Shown here piece by piece: positions 1 to 43,193 of a DNA stretch of 64,000 nt. The DNA comes from Thermoplasmata archaeon (GTDB taxonomy: Archaea; Thermoplasmatota; E2; JACPAO01; JAHFTW01), in contig JAHFTW010000002.1 of NCBI GenBank assembly GCA_023269235.1, positions 119,294 to 183,293 on the forward strand, written 5' to 3'. How positions within the stretch are numbered: position 1 is the first letter of the stretch; every line of letters begins with the position of its first letter. Made by a program: the position numbers and the translations under genes. The notes below the pieces were generated by a model. That model made no database searches. It was not told where the DNA came from and saw only the letters and a list, made by a program, of their open reading frames with translations.

Positions 1-109
1 CGGCGAGGCGCGCGTCACGCTCCCCGTCCCCCCGGGGGCAACCGGGCTGACGATTGGGTTCCTCGCGGACCGCTCGATTCGGCAGACCTCGGAGCAGCCG
101 CTGACGCCC

Positions 110-1750
110 GTGCTGCAGCAGCAGCTCGTCGTGTACGACGCCGCCGGCCTGCAGGCCTCCTCGTTCAGCGTCTACGACCCGTCGGCGCCCGCGCAGCTGA
201 CGCGCCTGCCGTTCGCGTTCACCGTCCCCCTCGCCCCCGGCCGCACCAACGTCAGCGCCGGATGGTCGTTCGCGGACCGCGGCGGCCCATCCGGCCAGGT
301 GCTCGTGAGCCCGCTCTCGGGCCAGGGCTTCGAAGCCGTGGTGGACCAGCCGACCTTCACCTTCACCGGGCTTCCCCTCGCGGTGGAGCGCGTCCACCAG
401 GAGCGCATCGGGGTGCGCGGCGACGCGGTCGCTTCCTTGACCACGGTGCAGGTCCGCCTGGAGCCTTGGATGCTCAGCCGTGGGGCCGCGGCCATCCTCG
501 TGCGCGTCCCCGCCACGCTGGCGCTCGACGGCGCCTCTGCCCCGGACGGGGTCGAACTTGCCAACGGTGACGTCGCCGCCCTCGACCAGGCGGGGGAGCG
601 CCAAGTGACCATCGCCGCCGCCGCGACGGTCGCGCACGGCCCCGGGACGTACACGCTTCGGTTCCTCTCTGCCTCCACGCTCCAACCCGTGGCGGCCCTC
701 TACCCCTTCGCGCTTCTGATCCTCTTCGTCCCGGTCGCCGCAGGGGGCGTCGCCTTGCACAACACCCGCAACTTCTTGCGCCAGGCGCCCACCGGGTTCC
801 GCCGCACGGCGCGCATCTTGGTCCGCAGCGTCCTCGCCCTGCTCCTGGGGTACCTCCTGCTGCCTGGTTCGGTCATCCTCTCCGGCGAGATGCCGCTCCT
901 GGCGTCTTGGCCGCTGGAGGGCGAGGCGGGCCTCATCTACATCCTGGTCGGCGTCGCCTTCCTCGCCTTCATCGGGTTCGACGTGGCGGGCCGGCGCAAC
1001 CTCGCGCGCCTTGCCGCCCTCGACACGGCGGCCCGGGAACGCTCGGCCCAAGCCCTGGCTCGCTCGAACCGCGACCTCGAGCAGTTCGCCTACGTCGCCT
1101 CCCATGACCTGCAGGAGCCGCTTCGCATGGTGGCCTCGTACACGGAGCTTTTGCGGCGGCGCTACGGCGGCAAGCTCGACGCAGAGGCCGACGAGTTCAT
1201 CGGCTACGCCGTGGACGGCGCCACGCGCATGCGCCGCCTCATAGACGACCTGCTCGCTTTCAGCCGCGTCGGCACCGGCGGCCGCCCCTTCGAGCCGGTC
1301 CGGCTGGACGGCGCGCTCGACGAGGCGCTCCTGAACCTTGAGGTGGCGCGGCGGGACTCAGGCGCCGTCCTCCAGCGCGACCCGCTGCCGACCGTGCCGG
1401 GCGACGCCGTCCAGCTCGCCCAGGTGTTCCAGAACCTCGTCGGCAACGCCATCAAGTTCGCCAAGCCCGGCCAGGCGCCGCGTGTGCGCGTCACGGCGCG
1501 CGACCTCGGGGAAGAGTGGGAGGTCGCCGTGGCCGACGAAGGCATCGGCATCGCACCGCAGCACATCGGGCGCCTCTTCGTCATCTTCCAGCGCCTCCAG
1601 CCGCGCGACGCGGCCCCCGGCAACGGCATCGGCCTCGCCCTCGTCAAGCGCATCCTGGAGCGCCACGGGGGGCGCGTCTGGGTGGAGTCCGTCCCAGGCG
1701 AAGGGTCCACATTCCACTTCACCCTCCCCAAACGGCCGAGGCCTGCATGA
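110..1750 (+). CDS. Sensor histidine kinase: N-terminal extracytoplasmic domain, TM helices, HisKA and HATPase_c. May extend upstream of the window.
   Basis: H-box motif FAYVASHDLQEPLRMV. G-box GIGLALVKRILERHGGRVWVESVPGEGSTFHFTLP. Hydrophobic segments around aa 200-290. First ATG is at 110 but the frame could continue 5' of the window. Confidence 0.85.
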   Translation: MLQQQLVVYDAAGLQASSFSVYDPSAPAQLTRLPFAFTVPLAPGRTNVSAGWSFADRGGPSGQVLVSPLSGQGFEAVVDQPTFTFTGLPLAVERVHQERIGVRGDAVASLTTVQVRLEPWMLSRGAAAILVRVPATLALDGASAPDGVELANGDVAALDQAGERQVTIAAAATVAHGPGTYTLRFLSASTLQPVAALYPFALLILFVPVAAGGVALHNTRNFLRQAPTGFRRTARILVRSVLALLLGYLLLPGSVILSGEMPLLASWPLEGEAGLIYILVGVAFLAFIGFDVAGRRNLARLAALDTAARERSAQALARSNRDLEQFAYVASHDLQEPLRMVASYTELLRRRYGGKLDAEADEFIGYAVDGATRMRRLIDDLLAFSRVGTGGRPFEPVRLDGALDEALLNLEVARRDSGAVLQRDPLPTVPGDAVQLAQVFQNLVGNAIKFAKPGQAPRVRVTARDLGEEWEVAVADEGIGIAPQHIGRLFVIFQRLQPRDAAPGNGIGLALVKRILERHGGRVWVESVPGEGSTFHFTLPKRPRPA

Positions 1751-2175
1751 CCGCCCAACGCCCCCGCATCCTCCTCGTCGAGGACAACGCCCGCGACGTC
1801 CGCCTCATGCAGATCGTCCTGAGCGAGCTCGACGACTTCCCGCACCTCCTGGAGACGGCGAACGACCTCGTCTCCGGCGTGGCGCGCGTGCGGGCCGGCG
1901 GCGTGGACCTGGTCCTCCTGGACCTCAACCTCCCCGAGTCGCAGGGCGTCGCCACCCTGGCCCGCTTCGTGCGCGAGGCCCCCGCGGTCCCCGTCATCGT
2001 CGTCACCACCCTGGCCGACCGCGAGCTGGCTGCGGAGGCCGTCGCGAAGGGCGCCCAGGATTACCTTGTCAAGGGCCGCATGCACGGTCCCCTTCTGCCC
2101 CATGTGCTGCGCGGCGGCATGGAGCGGCACCGCCTGACCGCCGAGCTGCGCGCGCTGCGCTCCCCGAAGGCGTAG
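1747..2175 (+). CDS. Stand-alone response regulator receiver (CheY-like) domain
   Basis: ILLVEDN ... LVLLDLNLP ... VIVVT ... DYLVKG motifs. ATGA overlap with the kinase stop, so an operonic pair. Confidence 0.85.
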   Translation: MTAQRPRILLVEDNARDVRLMQIVLSELDDFPHLLETANDLVSGVARVRAGGVDLVLLDLNLPESQGVATLARFVREAPAVPVIVVTTLADRELAAEAVAKGAQDYLVKGRMHGPLLPHVLRGGMERHRLTAELRALRSPKA

Positions 2176-2180
2176 CCGGC

Positions 2181-3041
2181 ATGGCGGGACGCGCCCTGGC
2201 CGTGACCGTCGTGCTCGCGGGCCTCGTCCTGGCGGGCTGCGTCTCCGGTCCCGTCCAGGCGCCCCCCAGCAAAGCCACGCTCCTCCCCGCGCCCATCACC
2301 CTCAACATTGGAGCACGGGATTGCCTGAACTTCATCCTGTTCCAGTTCCTCCCCTTCGCTGCCGCCGATGCGTTTCTTCCGCCCGGCTACCACGCCCGGG
2401 ACCCCAAGGATTTCCTGAACTCCCCGGCGGCCACGGGGCAGGCCGCCGCCGTGGTGTTCCTGCTCGACTGCGCAAGCCGCGACGCGGACGGCAAGCCGTG
2501 GGTGAGCGGGTACTCCGGCGTGTACGTCGAGCCGCCCGCCGTCCCCGACACTCCTGATGCGGTGCCCTTGAACTTCTACGAGGTCGAGCACTTCGGGGAG
2601 GAACTGAACGGGACGCTGGCCAGCCTGGGATGGCCGGTCCATGCCTCGAACGTCAGCGTGGCCCGGAACACCGTGAGCCAGGACACCGTCGGGAAATCGG
2701 GCAGCATCACGGACGCCAACGGGTTGCTGTTCCAGTTCTTCGCGACGGCCGCGGCCCCGTATCAGTTGGCCTTGGGCCCGGTCCGGTTGTGGCACGAAAC
2801 CCCCAAGGGAACAGGGTACTTCCAGTACAACGCGACGCTCGATGCCCAGTTCGGACCGGTCGTGTGCATCCTGCCGCAATACGGCACCGTGCTTGGGGCG
2901 CTCATCGGGGAACCGACCCGTCTTCCCAACGGAGGGAACCTGGTGGCTTGCGCCCCAGACCGCGCCCGGCTGGGCGCCACCTTCCCGAACCTGTCGTTCC
3001 TAGGAGAGTTCCGGTTCCTGCCCGGCGTCCACGCGCGGTAG
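2181..3041 (+). CDS. Secreted lipoprotein of unknown function (lipobox LAGC). Paralog of 29436..30275.
   Basis: Signal peptide MAGRALAVTVVLAGLVLAGC. In frame with long ORF 1338..3041, whose upstream part is spurious. Shares collinear motifs with the lipoprotein at 29436. Confidence 0.6.
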   Translation: MAGRALAVTVVLAGLVLAGCVSGPVQAPPSKATLLPAPITLNIGARDCLNFILFQFLPFAAADAFLPPGYHARDPKDFLNSPAATGQAAAVVFLLDCASRDADGKPWVSGYSGVYVEPPAVPDTPDAVPLNFYEVEHFGEELNGTLASLGWPVHASNVSVARNTVSQDTVGKSGSITDANGLLFQFFATAAAPYQLALGPVRLWHETPKGTGYFQYNATLDAQFGPVVCILPQYGTVLGALIGEPTRLPNGGNLVACAPDRARLGATFPNLSFLGEFRFLPGVHAR

Positions 3042-3083
3042 GCGAAGCGACGGCCGCTGCGCTCATCGCAGCAAGACGCATCA

Positions 3084-3120
3084 AAAGGAAGGGGAAGGAA
3101 GGGGAAGGGGAAAAGAAGAC
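3084..3120 (-). terminator. Poly-pyrimidine (C/T-rich) tract immediately 3' of rpl12 (purine GGAA-repeat on + strand). Putative archaeal oligo-T terminator.
   Basis: Plus strand aaaaggaaggggaaggaaggggaaggggaaaagaag. On the minus strand this is cttcttttcccc..., beginning about 15 nt after the L12 stop. Confidence 0.4.
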
Positions 3121-3133
3121 GGGGCGGACGGCG

Positions 3134-3436
3134 TTAGCCGAACAGGGCGCCGAGGCCAGCGGCGGCCTCTTCCTCGGAGACGCCCTTCTCCTCGGGCTTC
3201 TCCTCGGCCTTCGCGGCGGGGGCGGCGGCGCCCGCGGGGGCGGCCATCGCGACCGGCGCGGCGGTGGCGTTCTTGATCGCGGCGCCGATGTCGGCGCCCT
3301 CGAGGGCGGCGACCAGGGCCTTGACACGGCCGGCGTCGGCAGGGATGCCGGCGCCCTTCAGGACCGCGTTGACGTTCGCTTCGTTGATCTCTTTCTTGGC
3401 GCTGTGCAGGAGCAGCGCGCTGTAGACGTATTCCAT
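3134..3436 (-). CDS. rpl12: 50S ribosomal protein L12 (archaeal P1 stalk protein)
   Basis: [22 protein letters not shown] ... Ala-rich hinge ... acidic C-terminal [24 protein letters not shown] start 3 codons upstream (MNTM, 3445) is also possible. Confidence 0.9.
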
Positions 3437-3451
3437 GGTGTTCATTCCTCC

Positions 3452-4498
3452 TTAACCAAACAGCGCGCCTAGTCCGGCGGCCGCTTCCTCTTCGCTGACG
3501 CCCTTCTCCTCGGGCTTCTCCTCGGCTTGCGCCTTAGAGGAGCCGGCCGAGGCGGGCGCCGCCACGGCCACTTGGCTGAGGATCTTCAGGGAGTCGCCCA
3601 GGCGCTGCTTGAGCGCCTCGGACAGGTCGGACTCCTTCTTGCCGATGGAGGCGAGGACCTTCGCGTAGTCGGCCGTGATGGTCTTCTCGACCGCGGCGTC
3701 CACGCTCAGGTTCTGCTCCAAGACCAGGGCGATGGCCTGCTTGTAGGCACGGCCCAGGAGAGCGTCGGCCGTCTCGCTGGTGATGAAGCCAGTCTGGAGC
3801 GACAACTCGTGGGCGGTGCGCACGGCGAGGCCGAGCTGGCCGAAGATGACGGTCTCGTCCACGCCGAGGGCCTCGGGGCCGAAGACGGTCCCGGCCTCGA
3901 AGGCGGCCTTGAGGTCGATCTTCAGCTCGACGGGGCGGATCTCGAGCTTGGCGAGCAGGCCGGCCAGCTCGTTGGAGACGACCTGGCCCGCCTTGACGGG
4001 GGTGGCGTCCTTGGAGATGACGACCTTGCCGGCCTCGATCTTCGCCGGGATGCCGACCTTCTGCAGCTCACCGACGATGGGGCCGGGGCCGAAGGGCGTG
4101 TTGCCCTTGGGGATGAAGATGTCGTTGGGCGCAACCTGGCCGCCCTTGAGGGGGGCCATGGAGGCGCCGGCCTTCAGGCTCTTGAAGAGCTTGAAGGGGT
4201 TCTGCTTCGTGGCGAGGATGACGGACTGGCCGTGCATCTTGGCGGCGAGCGCCTCGATGCCGGGCTTGGCCTTGGCGGCCTCGGCGATGGCAATCTTCAG
4301 CAGGCTGTTCTTGCTGCCGACGACCGACACCTTGCCGCGCAGGCTGACGCGCATCTGCTGCATCTGCGGGGCGGGGATGCCGGAGACCTCGGCGATGGCG
4401 ACGACGGGGTTGTCCACGAGGAGCTTGGTCAGCATGGCGACCTCCTCCTTCTTCCAGGGGGCGACGTGGGCGTGGCCCTCGGTGGTGCCCTTCGTCAT
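3452..4498 (-). CDS. rpl10: 50S ribosomal protein L10 (acidic ribosomal protein P0)
   Basis: 348 aa. P0 N-domain. C-terminus is identical in style to the L12 tail ([23 protein letters not shown]). Confidence 0.9.
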   Translation of the reverse strand: MTKGTTEGHAHVAPWKKEEVAMLTKLLVDNPVVAIAEVSGIPAPQMQQMRVSLRGKVSVVGSKNSLLKIAIAEAAKAKPGIEALAAKMHGQSVILATKQNPFKLFKSLKAGASMAPLKGGQVAPNDIFIPKGNTPFGPGPIVGELQKVGIPAKIEAGKVVISKDATPVKAGQVVSNELAGLLAKLEIRPVELKIDLKAAFEAGTVFGPEALGVDETVIFGQLGLAVRTAHELSLQTGFITSETADALLGRAYKQAIALVLEQNLSVDAAVEKTITADYAKVLASIGKKESDLSEALKQRLGDSLKILSQVAVAAPASAGSSKAQAEEKPEEKGVSEEEAAAGLGALFG

Positions 4499-5134
4499 CT
4501 AGACCACCTTCACGGAGGGGCCCATGGTCGTCTTCACGTACACGGCGCTGACGTTCATGCGGCCGTGCTCGAGCTTGGACTCGACACGCTTGAGGACCGC
4601 GTCGATGTTGTCGGCGAGGTCGGCGGCGGACATGGTCTCGGCGCCCACCATGCAGTGGAACACGAGCTTGTCCTTGGAGCGGAGCTTGACGGTGTTGCGC
4701 AGGTTGTTGACCTGGGGCGTCGGGTCGGCGCCGGGGGGGACGGGGCGGGGCATCTTGCCGCGGGGGCCCAGCACGACACCGAGCGTCTTGCCGATGTTGG
4801 CCATCAGGGGGGCCTCGGCGAGGAAGTAGGTGGTGTTGTTGACGATGCGCTTGAAGTTGCGCTTGTTCTTCGTCAGGGAGTCGAACTCGTCGGGCTGGAT
4901 GACGGTGTCCGCGACCTTCTTGGCCTTGGCGGCGCCTTCACCCTGCGCGAACACGCCGACCTTGGCCGGCTTGCCGCGTCCCTTCGGGAGGATGATGTCC
5001 TCGTCGATGCGGTTCTTCGGGATGCTCAGGTCGACGTTCTTGAGCATGATGGCGAGGTCCACGCTCTGCGTGAACTTGCGCTCGAGGGACTTGGAGGCCT
5101 CGAGGGCCTTCGTGACAGCTTCCAGTGTGGTCAT
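4499..5134 (-). CDS. rpl1: 50S ribosomal protein L1
   Basis: MTTLEAVTKALEASK...FTQSVDLAIMLKNVD...GKTLGVVLGPRGKMP. L1 family. The upstream part of ORF 4499..6295 is spurious. Confidence 0.9.
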   Translation of the reverse strand: MTTLEAVTKALEASKSLERKFTQSVDLAIMLKNVDLSIPKNRIDEDIILPKGRGKPAKVGVFAQGEGAAKAKKVADTVIQPDEFDSLTKNKRNFKRIVNNTTYFLAEAPLMANIGKTLGVVLGPRGKMPRPVPPGADPTPQVNNLRNTVKLRSKDKLVFHCMVGAETMSAADLADNIDAVLKRVESKLEHGRMNVSAVYVKTTMGPSVKVV

Positions 5135-5172
5135 CTCGGCGATAGGAATCACCTGCGGCAGTATGGCGACCC

Positions 5173-5184
5173 GAGACGGGTCTC
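5173..5184 (-). promoter_or_regulatory. Perfect hairpin (gagacgggtctc) in the rpl1 5' leader/promoter region. Possible L1 autoregulatory element or divergent promoter element.
   Basis: 12-nt palindrome between rpl1 (minus) and the epimerase (plus). An A/T-rich ctaaatagg TATA-like box lies about 40 nt upstream of rpl1 on the minus strand. Confidence 0.25.
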
Positions 5185-5299
5185 CTGCCGGCTTTCGTTC
5201 CGACAAGCCCCCCCTATTTAGCCATTTTCGAGGCGAAGCGAGGGTCTCCCGAACAGGGCACACGCAACCGCCAAATGGGAAGGCCCCTGGTGCGCCGGC

Positions 5300-6346
5300 A
5301 TGAAGCAGTTGGAGTCCTACCTGGTCACCGGCGGGGCCGGGTTCCTCGGGCAGGCCCTCGTCAAGCGGCTGGCGGCGCAGGGCAAGCGCATCCGCGTCCT
5401 TGACAACGCACCGCGCCCGCCGGAGCTGGCCGGCATCGAGCTCGACTATGTCCAGGGCGACATCCGCGACCGGGTCGCCGTGGCCAAAGCCGTGGCTGGA
5501 GTGGACTGTGTTCTGCACGGCGCCGCGGCGCTGCCCATCCTGCGCGATGGGAAGTTCATCCACAGCGTGAACGTGGACGGCACCCGGAACCTTCTCGAGG
5601 CCTCCGTCGCCGCGAAGGTGCCCTCCTTCGTCTTCGTCTCGACGACCGCCGTGTACGGCCTGCACAAGGAGCACCCCATCACGGAGAAGAACCGGATGAT
5701 CCCCATCGGCCCCTACGGCGAATCCAAGGTCGCGGCCGAGCTCCTGTGCGCGCAGTTCCGCGACCGCCTCCATGTCGCCGTCGTGCGCCCCAAGACCTTC
5801 CTCGGCCAGGGCCGCCTCGGCGTCTTCGAGATCCTCTTCGACTGGATCCACGACGGCAAACGCATCCCGATGATCGGCAAGGGGCACAACAAGTACCAGC
5901 TCCTCGACGTCGAGGACCTCGTGGACATCCTGCTCCTGTCTGCCAGCCACCCGAAAGGCTCGGACACCTTCAACGCCGCCGCCAACCGGTTCGGCACCCT
6001 GCGCGAGGATCTCGCTCCGCTGTTTGCCGCCGCCGGCCACAAGCCGCGTTTCCTCACGACGCCGCGCAAGACCACCATCAGCGCACTCTGGGTGCTTGAC
6101 AAGCTCCGCCTGAGCCCCCTCACGCAGTGGCACTACGGCACGATGTCCTCCGACTCCTACGTCGAGACCGACAAGGCGCGCGAGCTCCTCGGCTGGAGCG
6201 CCAAGCGCAGCAACCAGGACACCTTGCTTGCCGCCTACACCTGGTACCACGCCCACCACGACGAGGTCAAGAAAGTGGGCGGCGGCACGACGCACACGGT
6301 GCCGTGGAACCAGAAGGCGCTCGGCTTCTTCAAGCGCTTCGCGTAG
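5300..6346 (+). CDS. NAD-dependent epimerase/dehydratase (extended SDR, GalE/UDP-sugar 4-epimerase family)
   Basis: N-terminal TGGAGFLGQALVKRL Rossmann motif. YxxxK region. 348 aa. Confidence 0.85.
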   Translation: MKQLESYLVTGGAGFLGQALVKRLAAQGKRIRVLDNAPRPPELAGIELDYVQGDIRDRVAVAKAVAGVDCVLHGAAALPILRDGKFIHSVNVDGTRNLLEASVAAKVPSFVFVSTTAVYGLHKEHPITEKNRMIPIGPYGESKVAAELLCAQFRDRLHVAVVRPKTFLGQGRLGVFEILFDWIHDGKRIPMIGKGHNKYQLLDVEDLVDILLLSASHPKGSDTFNAAANRFGTLREDLAPLFAAAGHKPRFLTTPRKTTISALWVLDKLRLSPLTQWHYGTMSSDSYVETDKARELLGWSAKRSNQDTLLAAYTWYHAHHDEVKKVGGGTTHTVPWNQKALGFFKRFA

Positions 6347-6370
6347 CGCGCGTAGAAGGTCGAGGGCGGA

Positions 6371-6434
6371 GCGCCTCCGGCTTTGCGCAGCAAGGCCGGA
6401 GGCAAAAGGCTCTCAGCTTCTTCAAGCGCTTCGC
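6371..6434. repeat. Convergent intergenic hairpin plus a 20-nt direct duplication of the epimerase 3' end
   Basis: IR gcgcctccggc...gccggaggc (6371-6403). gcttcttcaagcgcttcgc at 6324-6342 is repeated at 6415-6434, recreating a ...FFKRFA* reading frame. Confidence 0.6.
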
Positions 6435-6442
6435 CTGAGCGG

Positions 6443-9400
6443 TTACGGCTGGCATGCGGACGGCGCATCGGGCGCCGCGAACGCTGGCTCGAGGGCCTTG
6501 AGCGCGACGGCCATGCACTGGCCGTTGATGGTGTCGTGGCGGCCGCCGCCGGCGACGCTGAGCTCGGTGGCGACCCACGGCTTGACGGAGGTCGCCGCGT
6601 GCGCGCCGCACGACTGGCCGACGTGGAACGTTGCCCCGTTGCGCTCCAGCCAGAGGCCCCCGGCGCGGGCGGAGAGCCGGTCGCCGGGCACGAGCGTGTA
6701 CGGGCCCGGCACGGCGTCGAGGCCGGCAAGACAGGTGTCCCCCAAGGCCGCGTTGAGGGGCAGCGCGAGGTCGGGGCCGAAGGTGAGGACGGGGACCTTG
6801 GCGGCCGACCAGCTCGTGAGCTGGGCCGAGACGGCGGGGCCCGCCCGGTAGGGGCCGTAGCCGCCCTCGATGAGGACGAGGTCGGGGGCGCCGGAGACCG
6901 CGGGGCCGAAGACGTCGGCCGCGGCGACGCGGGTCTGGGGCAGGGCGCGGGGCAGGGCCGCCAAGGCGTCGATGCCCCAGAAGTGGCTCTCGCCCAATTC
7001 CGGCACGCTTGGATCCGTCATGGACGAGCGCTCATGGAGCAGGAAGAGGACGTTCTTCGCAGGGGCCGGGGCTGCCTGGAGCGCCTGCCGCTCGGCCAGG
7101 GTCTGCTCCAAGAAGCGCGCGCCGTACTCTTGGCTGGGCTCGATGCTGGAGCCTTCGAAGAACTCGTTGAAGGTCGCGATGACGGGGAAGGTCGGCGGGT
7201 GCGCGATGGTGGAGTCCCAGCTCCGCGAGTAGAACGACGCGCCGCCCGGACCGTCGGGGAACGCGGGGATGACAAACCCGTTCGGGCGGTTGACGGTGTC
7301 GTCGTACGAGGGCGCCACGCCAAACGAGCTCAGGCGGCCCGTCGCGTCGGCGAAGGCGGTGAGGCGGTGGTTGCGGTCCTCCCACAACGCGAAGGTGTCG
7401 TTGAAGGGCGCCTTCGGCTGGTTGCCCCACGTGAAGGACGGGCTGTAGATGAACGACCCGTCGAAGGCGGAGAGGCTCACGAGCGACTTGACGGTGCCCG
7501 CCTGGAAGTCGGCGCGCTCGTTGAGGGCGTCGCCGTTGACCATGAAGAGCGGCGTCCCGACGGCGGCCTCGAGGCGGGCGCGCAGGTCCTCCCAGAACGC
7601 GACGTGCTGCACCAAGTGGGCTGCGCGCCACAGGCCGTTGGCGCCAGGGTCGTTGAAGGACTTGTACGTCGTCGGGTAGTACTGCAGGACTGAGGGGACG
7701 GTGGCCTGGAGGCTGGAGTCGTTGAAGGCGGCGCGCAGCGTCTCGAGGGAGTGGAGGGAGAGGAGGGTGCGGGCCAGGCTCGCCTTGTCCTCAGGGTGGA
7801 AGCTGACCCCGCCGACATACGAGTCGTAGAAGAAGACCACCGGGCGGCCGCCCATGTGGAGCGCGGAGGGTTGGAGCAGCTGCGCCTTGAGGTCAACGAC
7901 GAACGCCGAGATGGCGTCCCGCGTGCCGTTGTCGAGGCGGTAGAAGGAGGCGGGGACCAGCTGCCCGAGCTCGTTCACGGGGTGGTGCTCCGCCTGGTCG
8001 TACACCTGGTTGAGCTCAATGAGGGGCGCGACGCGCAGGCCCGCCTTCGTCGCCTCATCCTGGAACGTGCGGTAGCGTTCGGCCTCGCCGCGGTGGTAAC
8101 TCACGACCGCGGTGTCAATGCCGGCCCCAATCATGGCGGCGACCTGGTCGCGGGCCACGCCCCGCGTGTTCGTGTAGTAGCCGATGGTGGGGACCTGGCT
8201 GACCACCTCCCAGTTGCCGTAGCGCACCGCGGGATCATGGGCCGGGTTCTGCCACCACAAGTAGGTGAAGGCGCCCACCAGCGGCTGAGCGGTGGCGGGG
8301 ATGAAGGCGGCGGGCGGGGCGGCCGCGCCGCCGAGTGCCGGCAGGAAGCCGACGCCGATGAGGAGGAGGCCGAGAACGCCCGTCGGGAGCAGGTGGCGGA
8401 CGCCCACGGGGGAGCGCGAACGCTGGCCGCTGAGGATGCGCAGCGCGAGCCACGCCATCGCGAACAGGGTGATGGACACCAGGGCCACAAGGATGGTTTG
8501 GAGCCACCACCAGAAGTCCGGCGAAAGGCTGCGCAACCGTTCGGCCGCAACGTCCACGGGCACGCCGCCCAAGACGACGTTGGCGACGTCTGGGGGCAGG
8601 AAGGTGAGGAAATGGAAGCCGCCGATGGCGATGACGAGCGCGAACAGCGTCGGCGTCCAGCGCGTCAGGAAATGGCCGAGGCGGTCGAGGACGTGGAGTT
8701 GGTCCAGGACGAGGATGGGCGCGACGAGGAGCACAAGGTACTGTTCGTTGACGACGCGGTTCCACACGAGGATGGCGATGCCGGCCATCAGGGTCAGCAT
8801 CAGGCTGGTGCCCTTGCCGCGCAGCCGCGTTGAGAGGTAGCCCACCGCGACGAGGGAGGCCACCATCAGGAGCGGGCTGAGGAGCTTGACGACGCCGTCG
8901 GAGAGGACCTCGCGCGGCACGAGCTGCCAGAGCGTCAGGCCCTGCACGCCGCGCGCCAGGTGCATTCCGACGACCTGCTGCCAGAAGCCGCCGGGGTCGG
9001 AGAGGAAGAAGGGGGCGCTCACGGCGGCGACGATGCCGGCGCCCGCGGCGCCGAAGCGGAACGCCGACTCCCAGCCGTGGCGCCGCACCAGGTACGGCAG
9101 CATCGGCAGGACGAGGAGGGCGGGGAAGGGCTTGACCAGAAAGGCGAGGCCGACGAGGACGCCAGCCTTGCCGGGCTTGCCGTTGCCGTAGGCGAGCAGG
9201 CCGCCGAGGTAGAGGGCCATGAGCGCGACGTCGGTCATGCCCCACGCGGCGGCCACGAGCAGGAGGAACGGGTTCCAGAGGAAGCGCCGTTCGACCTTGC
9301 GGGCCTCGTCTTCGTCGGAGCCGAAGCGGCGCGCCCAAGCCCCAGCGACCCAGGCGAGCGCCACAAGGGAGGCGATCATGGGGAGCTTCCACAGCACGCG

Positions 9401-21389: not shown

Positions 21390-21473
21390 GCCAACGTCGC
21401 TCAATCCGGTAGAGCAGCGGTCTTGAAAACCGCCGTCCGCAAGGATTTCCAGGTTCAAATCCTGGCGTTGGCG
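21390..21473 (+). tRNA. tRNA-Ser (anticodon TGA), class II with long variable arm
   Basis: Manual fold: acceptor GCCAACG/CGTTGGC. D stem GCTC/GAGC. Anticodon stem GCGGT/ACCGC with loop CTTGAAA. Long variable arm. T arm CCAGG-TTCAAAT-CCTGG. Discriminator G. Confidence 0.8.
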
Positions 21474-21522
21474 CTTGGGTTGATCGGCAGATCTATGGAT
21501 CTCGGCACCATCGTTTTGGACG

Positions 21523-22047
21523 ATGAGTCGCCGGGCTTCTTACCAGAAGACTCGGTCGAACAATCAAACTGAAGATGAGGCGTTGTTGGTTGTCTTACGC
21601 GCCGACCCCAGAATGCAACTGGTGAATTCCAAGACGCGCAATCGTCTCCTCGACCTTCTGGGACTTCGACCGGGTTTCAGTAGCCGCGTGTTTGACCTCA
21701 TCCGAACCAACTCTGTAGCTCCGGCGCTTGACGAATCTAACATTCACGAACATTTGGACGGCCTTGTTCTTGTTGAGGTCAAAGCCACTCAAGCGCCCAT
21801 CGTCGATTCGTCTCTTCATGGGTTCTTTTTTGGGGCAACCGAGAATGAGTACAAAATTGCGAAGCAACTTGGAGCGGCCTATTGTTTCGCGTTCGTGGTC
21901 CTTCGACCTGCGGGGGGCGGCAAACCTTTCCACGTTCTCTTGGACCTCGATGAAGTTGAGCGCCGCACACAGACCAAGCGAACGCAGTTTCAGGTGAATT
22001 TCAAGTCGGCCCGTCAAGGTGGTGTTCCCCCTGGACCTAAGCCTTGA
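21523..22047 (+). CDS. DUF3883-like PD-(D/E)xK nuclease-fold protein (low-GC islet gene 1)
   Basis: HEHLDGLVLVEVKAT ... FFFGATENEYKIAKQLGAAYCFAFVV resembles the DUF3883 core and C-terminal helix. Codon usage is markedly lower in GC than its surroundings. Confidence 0.5.
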   Translation: MSRRASYQKTRSNNQTEDEALLVVLRADPRMQLVNSKTRNRLLDLLGLRPGFSSRVFDLIRTNSVAPALDESNIHEHLDGLVLVEVKATQAPIVDSSLHGFFFGATENEYKIAKQLGAAYCFAFVVLRPAGGGKPFHVLLDLDEVERRTQTKRTQFQVNFKSARQGGVPPGPKP

Positions 22048-22807
22048 CCCCCGCCCCGGTGAAGGATACCGAAGCGCCAGCCAATGGGCCCGTCGCGTAA
22101 CTGAGAATTGGGCCGCGCGTGAATTGTACTGTTGGGGATGCCAGTCCCCACATCTTTCCGCGCACGCGACCAACACCAGCGTCGAGGATTACCGTTGTCC
22201 GTCTTGCTCTCGACGCGTTCAAGTCAAGGCGAAAAACGGGCCAATCGGGAAGACGGTTGCCAACTCAGGCTACGAAGTAAAACTTCAGGCCATCCGGAAA
22301 AATGTCGCACCAGACTATGCGTTCATGTCGTACAGCCGAACCGATTTGGCCGTCGAATCATTGTTCGTTGTTCCCGGTTCGTTTCTCTCTCAATCTGTAA
22401 TTTCTCCGCGTACGCCTTTGAGCGCGACTGCTCGGCGTGCTGGCTGGGTCGGCTCGAATATTCATCTGGACCGCATTCCGGCGTTTGGGAAAATCGTCGT
22501 GATTGCCGACGGAGCCGCACGTCCCAAGGTGCAGGTCCGCAAAGATTTCTCACAGATTGGATTTGTCGGGTCCTTCCCTCAAGAGCAGCGTGGTTGGCTT
22601 GGGGATGTCCTTTCTTGTTTGGAGAAGCTTGACCTCACGTCCGGAAGTTCATTCCATCTTGGCGACCTCTACGCATTCGAGGATTCCCTGCGTCGCCTGC
22701 ATCCAACGAACAACAACATTCAGCCAAAAATTCGGCAGCAACTCCAAGTGTTGGAACGGCAAGGAATTGTTCGCCGTCTCCGCCCGGGACTGTTCCAAAA
22801 GGTTTGA
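22019..22807 (+). CDS. DpnI-like (Dam-replacing family) methyl-directed type IIM restriction endonuclease: Zn-ribbon + PD-(D/E)xK + C-terminal winged helix
   Basis: YCWGCQSP...YRCPSC zinc ribbon. GYEVKLQAI (ExK). SATARRAGWVGSNIHLDRIP and KIRQQLQVLERQGIVRRL closely recall DpnI segments (TARRAGWIG..., IRQQLQIL...). Low-GC codon usage. Confidence 0.6.
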   Translation: MVFPLDLSLDPRPGEGYRSASQWARRVTENWAARELYCWGCQSPHLSAHATNTSVEDYRCPSCSRRVQVKAKNGPIGKTVANSGYEVKLQAIRKNVAPDYAFMSYSRTDLAVESLFVVPGSFLSQSVISPRTPLSATARRAGWVGSNIHLDRIPAFGKIVVIADGAARPKVQVRKDFSQIGFVGSFPQEQRGWLGDVLSCLEKLDLTSGSSFHLGDLYAFEDSLRRLHPTNNNIQPKIRQQLQVLERQGIVRRLRPGLFQKV

Positions 22808-23035
22808 CTCCACCCCGGCAAAGCGATTTCGTTGCCGTTTCCATCTGAGTCGCATGAGCTACCGGCCGCTGGTGCCGCAGGTTGTTTGTCCGTGTGGGAG
22901 AAAAATTCCTCGTCGAAGTCTTGCGTTGACGGAGCCTGATACGGGGAGTTACCGGGGCGCCATATGGCAATCAGGTTGCTCCTGCGGACGTTCCCTGACG
23001 ATTGAAATTGCGGACGACCCCGAATATCCTTCCGA

Positions 23036-40793: not shown

Positions 40794-40866
40794 GGGGAGA
40801 TACCAAAGCGGCTATGGGCGGGACTGCAGATCCCGTTTTACGGGGGTTCGAATCCCTCTCTCCCCT
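40794..40866 (+). tRNA. tRNA-Cys (anticodon GCA)
   Basis: Acceptor GGGGAGA/TCTCCCC. Anticodon stem CGGGA/TCCCG with loop CTGCAGA. T arm GGGGG-TTCGAAT-CCCTC. Discriminator U (Cys identity element). D arm is irregular. Confidence 0.6.
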
Positions 40867-40871
40867 CTGCC

Positions 40872-41681
40872 ATGCTTGGCCAATGCCGCACCCATGGATA
40901 CTACCGCGGGGAGTCGTGCCCCCTCTGCGACCAGCCTGGTCGTCTCCTGATGAAGGACTTCGAGATTGACCGCGTCGGCCGCATGATGGCCGGCATCCTG
41001 CGCCATTTCCCGGAGCGCTTCGGCCTCCAGATGGACGGCCGCGGCTGGGTGGACCTCGACGGCTTCGTCGCCTCCATCCAGCAGAGCCGCGACAACTACC
41101 GCCGCTGGCTGCGCCGCGAGCACATCGAGGCCCTCGTCGAGACCGACGAGAAAGGCCGCTACCAGATCGACGGCGGCATGGTGCGCGCCACCTACGCCCA
41201 CTCCGTCAAGGTCAACCTCGACGACCTGCCCGAGTGCACCCTGGAGACCCTCTACTTCCCTGTCAGCGAAGAGGAGATGGACTTGGTCCTCGAGACCGGC
41301 CTGCGCCCGTCGGACCGCGACAAGATCCACCTCTCCAGCACGCCCGACAAGGCGTACTCGGCCGGGCGCGTCCACATCGCGGACCCCATCCTGCTCGCCA
41401 TCAACGTCAAGAAGGCCTCGGACGCGGGGAACTTCATCTTCCGCGCCGGAAAGACCGTCTACATCACGGACGCCGTCGAGCCCGAGCACCTCAGCAAGTT
41501 CGACGACGCCGAGGCCATGGCCAAACTCCAGGAGGAGTTCGGCACCTCGAAGTCCGACGACGAGAAGAAGGCCCGCGAAGACGCTGCGCGCAAGGAGGAA
41601 GACGCCAAGATGGCGGCGCGCAGCGAGGAAGAGGGCGGCCCCGCGAAGGCCGACTCCGACGACGACGCGGACGACGAATAG
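40872..41681 (+). CDS. kptA: RNA 2'-phosphotransferase KptA/Tpt1 with possible N-terminal Zn-ribbon extension and acidic/Lys-rich C-terminal tail
   Basis: KDFEIDRVGRMMAGILRHFPERFGLQMDGRGWVDL matches the Tpt1 core. CRTHGYYRGESCPLCDQ lies upstream, in frame. Alternative start MKDFEID (40950). Confidence 0.75.
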   Translation: MLGQCRTHGYYRGESCPLCDQPGRLLMKDFEIDRVGRMMAGILRHFPERFGLQMDGRGWVDLDGFVASIQQSRDNYRRWLRREHIEALVETDEKGRYQIDGGMVRATYAHSVKVNLDDLPECTLETLYFPVSEEEMDLVLETGLRPSDRDKIHLSSTPDKAYSAGRVHIADPILLAINVKKASDAGNFIFRAGKTVYITDAVEPEHLSKFDDAEAMAKLQEEFGTSKSDDEKKAREDAARKEEDAKMAARSEEEGGPAKADSDDDADDE

Positions 41682-41760
41682 AATCCCCTTCTGGCGAACC
41701 GCCGGCGCGACCCTAGCCCTTATCTAGAAGTCGTTTGTCGCGCGGTTCGCCGCAAGGCAT

Positions 41761-41836
41761 GGGCGATTAGCCGAGACAGGTAAATGGCAGCGGACTCTTA
41801 ATCCGCTATCCACCGGTTCGAATCCGGTATCGCCCG
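41761..41836 (+). tRNA. tRNA-Lys (anticodon CTT)
   Basis: Acceptor GGGCGAT/ATCGCCC. D stem GCCG/TGGC. Anticodon stem GCGGA/TCCGC with loop CTCTTAA. T arm ACCGG-TTCGAAT-CCGGT. Discriminator G. Confidence 0.8.
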
Positions 41837-41991
41837 CTCGCACAAGTGCGAGCTGCCGAGCGCCACGAGCGCTTGTGCGCTCGTGGCTATCGCCCGCTCA
41901 TTCGCTCACGCACGAAGCGGCCGAGCGCCTGGAGCCGCCGTCGCGCCGCTCCTCTGCTCCCGGCTATCGCCCGCCAGGGGCCCGCCCCTGG
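41828..41991 (+). repeat. Three tandem copies of the tRNA-Lys 3' acceptor segment (TATCGCCCGC), each followed by a GC-rich hairpin
   Basis: Copies at 41828, 41888 and 41965. Hairpins ctcgcacaagtgcgag, gccacgagcgcttgtgcgctcgtggc and ccaggggcccgcccctgg. Confidence 0.6.
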
Positions 41992-43193
41992 ACCCCATTG
42001 TATTTGTGGGCGAACAGGCACGCGGCGTCGTGGCCTTCACGAAGACCGAGCGCGGCCTCATCGCGGGCGCGTCGTTCCTGGTGTTCACCCGCGTCTTCGC
42101 GTTCAGCCTCACCACGCTGGGGTTCACGGAGTACGCGCGCGGCCTCGTCCCCGCCGGCACTGATGCGGCCACGGCGAGCCTGTGGGCCGGCGTCGCGTTG
42201 GGCGCCTACGGAGTCACGATGGCCCTCGCCCAGCTCGCCGCGGGCTGGCTCTCCGACCGCGTCGGCCGCCGCACCGTCCTCCTGGGCGGTTCCCTGCTGT
42301 TCGTGCTGGGGGGCGTCCTCTGTGCGACCGCCACTACGGTTCCCTTCCTCGTCCTCGGCCGCCTCGTCGCGGGTCTCGGCGGGGTGTCGAGCGTCGCGAT
42401 GGCCGCCGTCGGCGAGACCGTCCCCGACGAGCGCCGCACGCGCGCCATGGCGATGGTGGGTGTCCCCGCCGGCCTCGGCGTCTTCCTCGGCTTCATCGTC
42501 GGCCCCCCCGTCGCGGCCGCGTTCGGGTTCACGACCCTGTTCTGGTGCACGGCGGCCCTCGGCCTGCTGGCGGCCCTCCCGTCGATGCGCGCGATGCCCG
42601 CCCCACTGCCCGGCCTCGCCACGCCGAACCGCAGCTTGAGCGCCCCGGTTCTCGCCCTCGGGCTGGCGGGCTTCAGCATCAACTTCGCCATGAACACCGT
42701 CATGTTCGACTTCCAGAGCGGCGTCCTCACACGCATCGGGGAGACCGCCCTGGCGCTCATCCTGGTCGCGGCCCTCGTCATCATGGGTGGCATCAGCCGC
42801 CGCATGGACAAAGGCGGCCTGGCCCACGTCGCCATCGCCTCCGCACTGGCCCTGCTCGCCCTCGCGGCGCCGACGTTCCGGCTCGCGGGCACCTGGTGGA
42901 TCGTGGTGGCGGCCGGCGTGGCCTTCTTCGCCGCCCACGCCACCCTCTCCGCCGTCCTGCCGAGCCAGGTGAGCCGCCTCGCCGGCCGTTCCGGAGGCCT
43001 CGGCCACGGCATCCAGCTCGTGATGGCCTACTTGGGCTCCGCCGTGGGTGGCCTCGTCGCCGGCCGCTTCGCGGGCGGCCTCGCCCCCGCCTTCGAGGGG
43101 CTCGCGGTCCTCGCCGGCCTCGCCGCCGTCCTGGCCCTCCGGACCCTGGCCCGCCGGGAACCGTCCCCCGCGAGCGCGGTTCCCCAACCTTGA
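41883..43193 (+). CDS. MFS transporter. True start probably about 42006 (GTG).
   Basis: Twelve TM helices. WLSDRVGRRTVLLGGS (MFS motif A-like). The ATG at 41883 lies in the repeat array. Confidence 0.75.
   Translation: MAIARSFAHARSGRAPGAAVAPLLCSRLSPARGPPLDPIVFVGEQARGVVAFTKTERGLIAGASFLVFTRVFAFSLTTLGFTEYARGLVPAGTDAATASLWAGVALGAYGVTMALAQLAAGWLSDRVGRRTVLLGGSLLFVLGGVLCATATTVPFLVLGRLVAGLGGVSSVAMAAVGETVPDERRTRAMAMVGVPAGLGVFLGFIVGPPVAAAFGFTTLFWCTAALGLLAALPSMRAMPAPLPGLATPNRSLSAPVLALGLAGFSINFAMNTVMFDFQSGVLTRIGETALALILVAALVIMGGISRRMDKGGLAHVAIASALALLALAAPTFRLAGTWWIVVAAGVAFFAAHATLSAVLPSQVSRLAGRSGGLGHGIQLVMAYLGSAVGGLVAGRFAGGLAPAFEGLAVLAGLAAVLALRTLARREPSPASAVPQP

Follow-up and report, generated by a model that had tools for sequence, protein, structure and literature searches.

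A candidate RtT-like repeat in the tRNA-Lys(CTT) trailer of a high-GC Thermoplasmatota archaeon

In a 64-kb stretch of DNA from an uncultured high-GC Thermoplasmatota archaeon (hereafter "the window", meaning the whole stretch that was analyzed), the gene for tRNA-Lys(CTT) is separated from a downstream gene for an MFS transporter by a compact array of hairpins, in which the tRNA's own 3′ end recurs. With somewhat better than even confidence, we read this region as the 3′ trailer of the tRNA, carrying two reduced and diverged copies of a clade-specific, tRNA-linked repeat that resembles the RtT repeat of Escherichia coli. The direct copies of the tRNA end match the tRNA of their own genome, the units are paralogues of each other, the fuller units of relatives covary, and the layout is that of RtT. 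Since the number of units at this position varies from zero to four in relatives, the locus is, as judged by sequence comparison, recombinationally dynamic.

The tRNA gene ends in a discriminator G at position 41836, and the CCA is unencoded. Its last ten bases, TATCGCCCGC, comprise the 3′ strand of the acceptor stem, the discriminator G and one further base. The parts of the array are listed here, with direct copies of the tRNA end labeled D, inverted copies I and hairpins P; labels such as L002 denote loci of relatives.

41761–41837, plus strand: tRNA-Lys(CTT) gene (ARAGORN; Rfam RF00005, 61.8 bits).
41828–41839, plus strand: D1, the tRNA's own 3′ end (TATCGCCCGC followed by TC), first copy of the motif (repeat comparison).
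41836–41853, plus strand: P0a, perfect 8-bp hairpin of 18 nt, GCTCGCAC-AA-GTGCGAGC (palindrome search).
41850–41859, plus strand: I1, GAGCTGCCGA, imperfect inverted copy of the tRNA end, complementary to D1 and D2 (repeat comparison).
41862–41887, plus strand: P3a, perfect 11-bp hairpin of 26 nt with a TTGT loop (palindrome search).
41888–41899, plus strand: D2, second copy of the tRNA 3′ end (TATCGCCCGCTC), the core of which closes unit 1 (repeat comparison).
41894–41920, plus strand: P0b, imperfect hairpin CCGC-TCA-TTCG...CGAA-GCGG (repeat comparison).
41917–41924, plus strand: I2, GCGGCCGA, inverted TCGCCCGC with one mismatch, pairing with D2 or D3 (equivalents in L002 and L044).
41927–41964, plus strand: P3b, imperfect hairpin GCCTGGAGC...GCTCCCGGC (repeat comparison and alignment to relatives).
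41965–41974, plus strand: D3, third copy of the tRNA 3′ end, closing unit 2 (repeat comparison).
41974–41991, plus strand: terminal perfect hairpin CCAGGGGC-CC-GCCCCTGG, 8-bp stem, 18 nt, followed by ACCCC (palindrome search).
41997–42006, plus strand: T-rich tract ATTGTATTTG after the last hairpin, of putative function (sequence comparison).

The ten-base motif is found exactly three times in the window, starting at 41828, 41888 and 41965 and hence with periods of 60 and 77 nt, and nowhere else (0.17 copies expected from shuffles, with 0 of 100 shuffles reaching three). Copies 1 and 2 match over 12 nt, GGCTATCGCCCGC is common to copies 2 and 3, and the D copies of the window are exact over 10–12 nt or extend to 13–15 nt with one gap; the longer string of T-arm plus acceptor strand of tRNA-Lys occurs only once in the window. 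Positions 41700–42100 are base-for-base the same in an independent Logan assembly (run SRR14366791), so the locus is not an artefact of one assembly, and this identity together with the shuffle statistics of the motif rules out both an assembly artefact and chance. The triplication at a spacing of about 60–77 nt, which the original prediction had reported, is thereby confirmed, and the repeats hold in one check that it had named beforehand as refuting, namely significance against shuffles. Its description of the palindromes is only partly borne out: there are three perfect ones and two of the sizes (26 and 18 nt) are right, but the first measures 18 nt instead of 16 nt. Nor does a palindrome follow each copy, as copies 1 and 2 enclose two of them, only imperfect hairpins come after copy 2, and one lies after copy 3.

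Each unit ends in a D copy and opens with a hairpin and an inverted partial copy, which gives the order D1-P0a-I1-P3a-D2-P0b-I2-P3b-D3; between the copies lie 50–67 nt of hairpin sequence and nothing else. The units U1 (41838–41897, the 60-nt period) and U2 (41898–41974, the 77-nt period) are tandem, diverged paralogues, whose common blocks are 79–85% identical. Both are long imperfect palindromes, the 3′ arm of which closes with the tRNA-end copy: P3a, the longest perfect palindrome of the window, is the tip of one with 23-nt arms (41850–41872 and 41877–41899, 19 of 23 positions paired), and in U2, 41917–41935 pairs with 41956–41974 at 15 of 19 positions. The 5′ arms begin with I1 and I2, each of which also complements, across a small hairpin, the tRNA-end copy before it; P0a and its flanks form a palindrome with 14-nt arms (41830–41843 and 41846–41859, 12 of 14 paired) that bridges D1 and I1. 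P3b is paralogous to P3a, from which it differs on both arms (AC/GT in place of TG/CA), and orthologous to hairpins in L002 and L044. The same two loci have 9–10-bp hairpins immediately 3′ of the tRNA as the counterpart of P0b, and they keep the terminal hairpin, to which L042 has a similar one. The window as a whole shows no enrichment of perfect hairpins with stems of at least 8 bp (21 entries, about 17 of them distinct, versus 24 in shuffles); three of the roughly 17 distinct ones cluster within 156 nt at the array.

Related loci, all from metagenome-assembled genomes of Thermoplasmatota, were gathered via three anchors, the upstream Tpt1 gene, the tRNA itself and the downstream MFS gene; a tRNA-anchored scan of metagenomes yielded 5 short contigs only. 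Direct copies were scored by alignment to the genome's own tRNA 3′ end within 300 nt of the tRNA. Comparison with orthologous loci, a check proposed with the original prediction, finds units in 11 of the 15 high-GC tRNA-Lys(CTT) loci, where the direct copy scores 11–24; L039 is a twelfth and weaker case (score 9). No arrays were found at 16 tRNA-Cys loci and one tRNA-Ser locus of the high-GC genomes (scores of at most 9) or at 16 low-GC tRNA-Lys loci (scores of at most 8), and in the low-GC Thermoplasmatales the sequence immediately 3′ of tRNA-Lys is T-rich and repeat-free. There is no unit in L010 and L055, one unit in L002, L044, L041, L042, L049, L014 and L039, one unit plus a remnant in L045 and L050, two units in the window and L033, and four in L011, in the form of the near-identical pairs A1/A2 and B1/B2.

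The D copies track the tRNA of their own genome, reading ATCGCCC, CATCGCCC, ATCTCCC, ATGGCCC, ACGGCCC or GCAGCCC, and the order D1-I-D2 is also found in L002, L044, L045, L050, L041, L042, L033 and L011. Units recur in lineages that share only about 55–75% identity in their MFS proteins, with D copies of 16–23 nt that are exact or nearly so. Relatives with exactly the tRNA of the window illustrate how its array arose: L002 and L044 carry a U2-type unit only, and L045 has a U2-type hairpin behind a first unit that is fuller. In an alignment of all four, U1 corresponds to the first unit of L045 with deletions, and U2 to the single unit of L002 and L044. Two further observations concern individual relatives. 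L011 (7608–8010) and L033 (968–1133) have a second type of unit, "B", of 170–233 nt, which follows the first type, opens with CTTC(C/T)TCCTCCACTTTTGATCGC and contains one to three tandem GTCCCGTCGGGGGCGGAGCCCCCAGGG before the tRNA-end copy; as it lies beyond a TTTT tract, unit B may not be co-transcribed with the tRNA. L033 also holds a 22-nt fragment of the tRNA-Lys 5′ end (619–640; GGGCCGTTGGCTTAGTCAGGTA), located 165 nt before the intact gene and with the same ACCT just upstream, which suggests that the tRNA gene itself was duplicated or rearranged at an earlier time.

Fuller units, of 85–120 nt, are present in L045, L050, L033, L011, L041 and L042. Their D copies measure 16–23 nt and begin in the T-loop (GAATCC... 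or GGTTCGAATCC...), and their inverted copies lie 14–41 nt 3′ of the tRNA (e.g., GGGCGATGCCGGATT or GGAGATACCGGATTC), scoring 13–15 in L045, L050, L041, L042 and L033 versus a shuffle maximum of 10–13. The inverted copy reads GGAGAT where the genome's own tRNA reads ATCTCC. The predicted fold of these units is a three-way junction of helices P1, P2 and P3. P1 is formed by the inverted and the direct copy over about 15 bp; in sequence it reproduces the acceptor and T stems stacked on each other, and it stops at the discriminator base. A small hairpin, P2, contains tandem GA/GA as its internal loop (CC-GA-GC-GAA-GC-GA-GG and variants), and P3 is a GC-rich hairpin. For six units, RNAalifold returns a consensus of 30 pairs, 9 of which are altered on both sides. 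In this consensus 89% of the cells are paired, versus 30–55% with the partners slid, and the covariation score of 0.327 (versus 0.201 in shuffles) was reached in 0 of 500 shuffles. R1, a covariance model that was trained on six fuller units, detects the independent unit of L042 with 25.7 bits (E 0.006). The units of the window have imperfect inverted copies of 8–10 nt and one inner hairpin each, the inner GA-loop hairpin being missing; they have probably lost most of the basal helix and would be decaying or merely structural copies.

Tandem-GA/GA hairpins with a GAA or GNRA-like tip (e.g., GA-GC-GAA-GC-GA) recur in tRNA-Lys trailers in either orientation, and are also seen in the E. coli RtT units (L054, the tyrT-tyrV spacer). 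Those of the archaeal loci are located as follows.

L045, 1342–1358, 1400–1418 and 1494–1514: GA/GA hairpins.
L050, 2253–2272: GA/GA hairpin.
L041, 1331–1347: GA/GA hairpin.
L002, 6721–6751, minus strand: GA/GA hairpin.
L044, 2875–2903, minus strand: GA/GA hairpin.
L047, 1035–1058, minus strand: GA/GA hairpin.

A genome-wide family of the REP (repetitive extragenic palindrome) or MITE (miniature inverted-repeat transposable element) kind was considered and rejected: TATCGCCCGC occurs only at the array, and neither GCCGAGCGCC nor the GA/GA hairpin module is enriched in the window (4 instances of the module elsewhere versus about 3 expected). The units may or may not be decayed whole tRNA-Lys pseudogenes: in 4 of 6 cases, their middles aligned globally to the tRNA no better than shuffles did, and the middles are not demonstrably tRNA-derived. 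Rfam scans covering the window region and the relatives' units returned only the tRNA and generic miRNA-like hairpin noise, apart from two weak alignments, one to RtT (12 bits, L045) and one of a tRNA-Sec-like kind (18 bits, L050).

Behind E. coli tyrT lies a repeat of 178 bp, which opens with the tRNA-Tyr end. This tRNA's last 19 nt (AATCCTTCCCCCACCACCA) recur in NC_000913 every 178 nt downstream of tyrV and one further time in the spacer from tyrT to tyrV, and the tyrT/tyrV region gives four RF00391 matches of 133–137 bits. In the basal stem of the RtT consensus, an inverted partial copy (GgGaaGGAU) pairs with the tRNA-end copy (AUCCuuCcC); the stem encloses an AGCGaAGcg (AGCGAAGCG) hairpin and a GC hairpin, the structure ends in ...CCACCA, and the annotated E. 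coli rttR (rtT RNA, b4425) stops exactly at the last base of the tRNA-end copy. The archaeal units are built alike in several respects. Those of the window lie in tandem, on the same strand and directly 3′ of the tRNA, and every unit closes with a copy of the adjacent tRNA's 3′ end, which starts in the T-loop in E. coli as well as in the archaeal relatives. A basal helix of inverted and direct copy around two inner hairpins holds in L045, L050, L033, L011, L041 and L042, where a small AGCGAAGCG-type hairpin inside the unit is followed by a GC-rich one. The differences are that RtT is bacterial and linked to tRNA-Tyr, whereas the present element is archaeal and linked to tRNA-Lys(CTT) with CCA unencoded; that RtT units measure 178 nt, whereas the archaeal ones are shorter (60–110 nt) and far more variable; that the basal helix of RtT takes in the first four bases of the acceptor strand and the archaeal helix the whole strand; and that the window copies are without the inner GA-loop hairpin.

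Several observations weigh against the reading as an RtT-like repeat. The RF00391 model aligns to the L045 unit from end to end with the elements in register, but at only 12 bits versus a gathering threshold of 45 bits; L050, L033 and the window region give no match to it, and R1 in turn has none on E. coli RtT. The 11-mer GAGCGAAGCGA shared with E. coli RtT could be due to chance, given the number of comparisons made. Homology to RtT comes down to shared position, the presence of a D copy, the motif CCGAGCG and a single alignment. The homology of the window units to the fuller units draws on the same four kinds of evidence, since R1 finds no match on U1 or U2 at E values up to 10. The fuller units represent only about four independent lineages. 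Their consensus cells contain 17 G-U versus 2 A-C combinations, which hints at folding of the sense strand, a count biased by RNAalifold's treatment of G-U as a pair; mismatches between the D and I arms are without wobble bias (3 G-T versus 4 A-C). The presence of GA/GA modules in both orientations fits a process at the DNA level better than one fixed RNA. Finally, pairing of the inverted copies runs through the discriminator base in the window, which makes the window units poor mimics of an acceptor stem. With RtT scores of at most 12 bits and RtT missed by R1, we call the archaeal element RtT-like in build and not a member of RF00391; on the sequence comparisons made here, we regard it as an analogue of RtT and not as an established member.

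For an RtT-like repeat, the following course of events may be envisaged. The number of units would shift through unequal recombination or slippage between D copies, and gene conversion would keep the D copies identical to the tRNA. The array would be transcribed together with the tRNA as far as the T-rich tract at 41997–42006, and each inverted copy could pair with the D copy on either side. In the fuller units, the tRNA-like end might direct tRNase Z, and possibly RNase P, to free a discrete trailer RNA, for which the E. coli rtT RNA, likewise ending at the tRNA-end copy, would be a precedent by analogy. Whether such trailers amount to an undescribed class of structured RNA in high-GC Thermoplasmatota, with a three-way junction that reproduces at its base the acceptor and T helix of the neighboring tRNA, release by tRNA processing and the standing of an archaeal counterpart of RtT, is a more doubtful matter, and we put this forward as a tentative proposal.

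The original prediction had interpreted the copies as stacked attachment sites left behind by repeated integration and excision at tRNA-Lys. We consider this, or the related idea of mini-elements mobilized by an integrase in the manner of cis-mobilizable elements, to be an unlikely origin, part of which is nevertheless well founded. The tRNA-Lys(CTT) gene is a real integration target in the clade, as the integrase-bearing element of L053 implies. This locus (1–7767; contig Ga0613609_000192) holds an integrated element of more than 7.7 kb at the tRNA-Lys(CTT) 3′ end, consisting mostly of unannotated open reading frames (ORFs) and lower in GC than its host (0.65–0.68 versus 0.75–0.77); its tyrosine-integrase gene (6659–7630, minus strand; PF00589, E 2.4e-17) lies 139 nt 3′ of the tRNA. 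Relative to the MFS gene, the tRNA of L053 is inverted; the locus has no repeat unit. An integration scheme would take the D copies for cores of the attachment (att) sites, and the hairpins and inverted copies for remnants of attP arms, an assignment that we likewise find improbable. A folded single-stranded attP, by analogy with CTX phage and integron attC, would yield the order D-loop-I-body-D, and this variant, too, has little likelihood in our view. D copies often begin in the T-loop, the usual crossover zone of tRNA-targeting integrases, and the direct repeat corresponds to that portion of the tRNA which lies 3′ of the crossover, with exact copies in the window and the left boundary in the T-loop in relatives; in L014 and L039, it continues 18–29 nt beyond the tRNA end. 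The hairpin modules occur in either orientation, as inversion between D and I would produce.

However, in the 12 loci with units, no integrase, cargo gene or pseudogene lies between the copies, and units of 60–233 nt are too short for recombination as circles. A homologue of the L053 integrase was found neither in the 64-kb window nor in any other locus, and viral_contigs contained neither a relative of it nor an exact match to the T-arm/acceptor sequence of tRNA-Lys (GGTTCGAATCCGGTAYSGCCCGC). Moreover, units at equivalent positions align from genome to genome and retain a structure that covaries, an inverted copy and covarying hairpins are unpredicted by simple att duplication, and the left half-site in the T-arm is missing from most D copies. 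What stands of the earlier interpretation is thus the tRNA-end copies, the dynamic locus and the integration target; the stacked scars of serial integration are not supported, given the lack of integrase or cargo between the copies and given units that are paralogous and positionally aligned in relatives. The 21.4-kb PYG1 island of Pyrococcus yayanosii is flanked by 44-bp repeats, and elements of 9–23 kb occur in Thermococcaceae (PMC9897764). Such attL/attR pairs resemble the array in that a tRNA gene's 3′ part is directly repeated downstream of the intact copy, and tRNA-Lys(CTT) is itself used by the L053 element. They differ in that the repeats there measure about 44 bp, whereas the copies here are 10–23 nt long and 60–233 nt apart with nothing mobile between them, each unit has an inverted copy and conserved hairpins, and the units are common to different genomes by position.

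Quite unlikely, in our estimate, is an account of the array as non-functional debris, produced by fold-back or template-switch errors at a highly transcribed, structured tRNA gene and homogenized by gene conversion. Two template switches would be expected to leave the order D-I-D with a hairpin at each turn, hairpin-templated correction can bring about changes on both arms such as those between P3a and P3b, and the units of the window are degenerate and missed by the structural model. Against this account, the arrays are confined to tRNA-Lys(CTT), with none after the tRNA-Cys and tRNA-Ser genes of the same genomes, the units persist across lineages with near-exact D copies, and the three-way junction of the fuller units is conserved with covariation.

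It is very unlikely that the hairpins themselves have a functional role, in which an array separating the tRNA from the MFS gene would act as terminator, attenuator or insulator and alternative pairing of I with D1 or D2 would tune tRNA maturation or read-through into MFS. Each inverted copy does pair with either neighboring D copy, so that mutually exclusive hairpins result, and the array lies between tRNA and MFS gene in the window, L002, L044, L045, L050, L041 and L039. The 163-nt array stretch folds with −78.3 kcal/mol (z −2.41), but this z-score is modest, with 6 of 200 shuffles folding equally well. Archaeal RNA polymerase terminates at oligo-T tracts, not at hairpins, and the only T-rich tract, at 41997–42006, comes after the last hairpin, which makes the tandem terminator array offered as an option in the original prediction improbable. 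The T-rich, TATA-like tract about 25–30 nt before the MFS start persists without an upstream tRNA in L047, L048 and L051; conversely, the tRNA occurs without any unit in L010 and L055, and L047 and L049 have units without a following MFS gene.

Two further candidates were rejected. Casposon- or CRISPR-like duplication is at odds with the variable repeat lengths, and no cas, casposase or polymerase gene was found near the array among the selected ORFs scanned. In Aciduliprofundum, which also belongs to the Thermoplasmatota, a casposon is inserted at tRNA-Pro (PMC5137440), and repeated short duplication at a tRNA 3′ end can build arrays as well; there, the duplication is fixed at 15 bp with a 5-bp overlap of the tRNA and flanks kilobase-sized elements with terminal inverted repeats, whereas here the repeat length ranges from 10 to about 40 nt, with starts in the T-loop or the acceptor strand. 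A retroelement primer-binding site is dismissed because TGG(C), which would be complementary to CCA and the discriminator base, is missing before the inverted copies.

The array also bears on the annotation of the gene that follows it.

42030–43193, plus strand: MFS transporter gene, likeliest start GTG 42030 (gene calls; conserved N-terminus).

According to the original prediction, the array overlaps an annotated ATG of this gene and the real start lies downstream; the latter is upheld, while an annotated ATG does not exist. The longest ORF begins at GTG 41883, inside the array, and the start has been called at GTG 42006 (ENA, contig ERZ27279977 k141_5319206) or at GTG 42030 (NCBI/Logan, 387 aa). 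As the N-terminus VAFTK(T/A)ERGL encoded from 42030 is kept in relatives, GTG 42030, downstream of the array, is the most likely start. A TTTT(T) tract is found at the equivalent place upstream of the MFS gene in relatives, whether the tRNA is present or not. The tract at 41997–42006 would presumably serve as the TATA-like element of the MFS gene, and it could also be the sole plausible oligo-T stop for the tRNA transcript.

Upstream, the Tpt1/KptA RNA 2′-phosphotransferase gene (40872–41681; region 40794–41681) starts 4 nt after the end of a tRNA-Cys(GCA) gene, a pairing that is kept in 16 high-GC Thermoplasmatota loci. The longest Tpt1 ORF (from 40767) wrongly crosses tRNA-Cys; the protein is extended at its N-terminus by a Cys-rich stretch (CRTHGYYRGESCPLCDQPG), and its tail is very acidic. 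In L002 (4930–6597) and L044 (1086–2678), a minus-strand gene for a secreted BNR-like protein of 530–555 aa lies between Tpt1 and tRNA-Lys. It is absent from the window, where the gap between the two genes is only 79 nt (41682–41760), a difference in gene content that adjoins the array. Elsewhere in the window, a low-GC patch (21390–23000; 0.56–0.60 versus about 0.70) begins directly after tRNA-Ser(TGA) (21390–21474). It encodes a DpnI-like methyl-directed restriction endonuclease (22019–22807; PF06044, E 1.7e-49, plus DpnI_C) and a 174-aa ORF (21523–22047); neither a copy of the tRNA-Ser end nor an integrase was found in the patch, which may be a small acquired defense islet.

For annotation, the main consequence is that arrays of this kind can be mistaken for scars of att sites, for tRNA fragments or for 5′ extensions of genes; in the window, reading the array as part of the MFS gene lets the ORF run 147 nt too far upstream. 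The feature of the window is read here as a tRNA-linked repeat and not as evidence for a mobile element, and the structured element found across the clade is of greater interest than the window copies. To our knowledge, RtT, which emerged from work on E. coli tyrT between 1978 and 1991, is still without an accepted function or origin, and has been regarded as an enterobacterial oddity. An archaeal locus that follows the logic of RtT would turn this one-off into a class, open to comparison by tRNA, clade and processing enzyme. If the proposal holds true, trailer RNAs that mimic a tRNA end would form a cross-domain class, ancient or convergent, with a common function.

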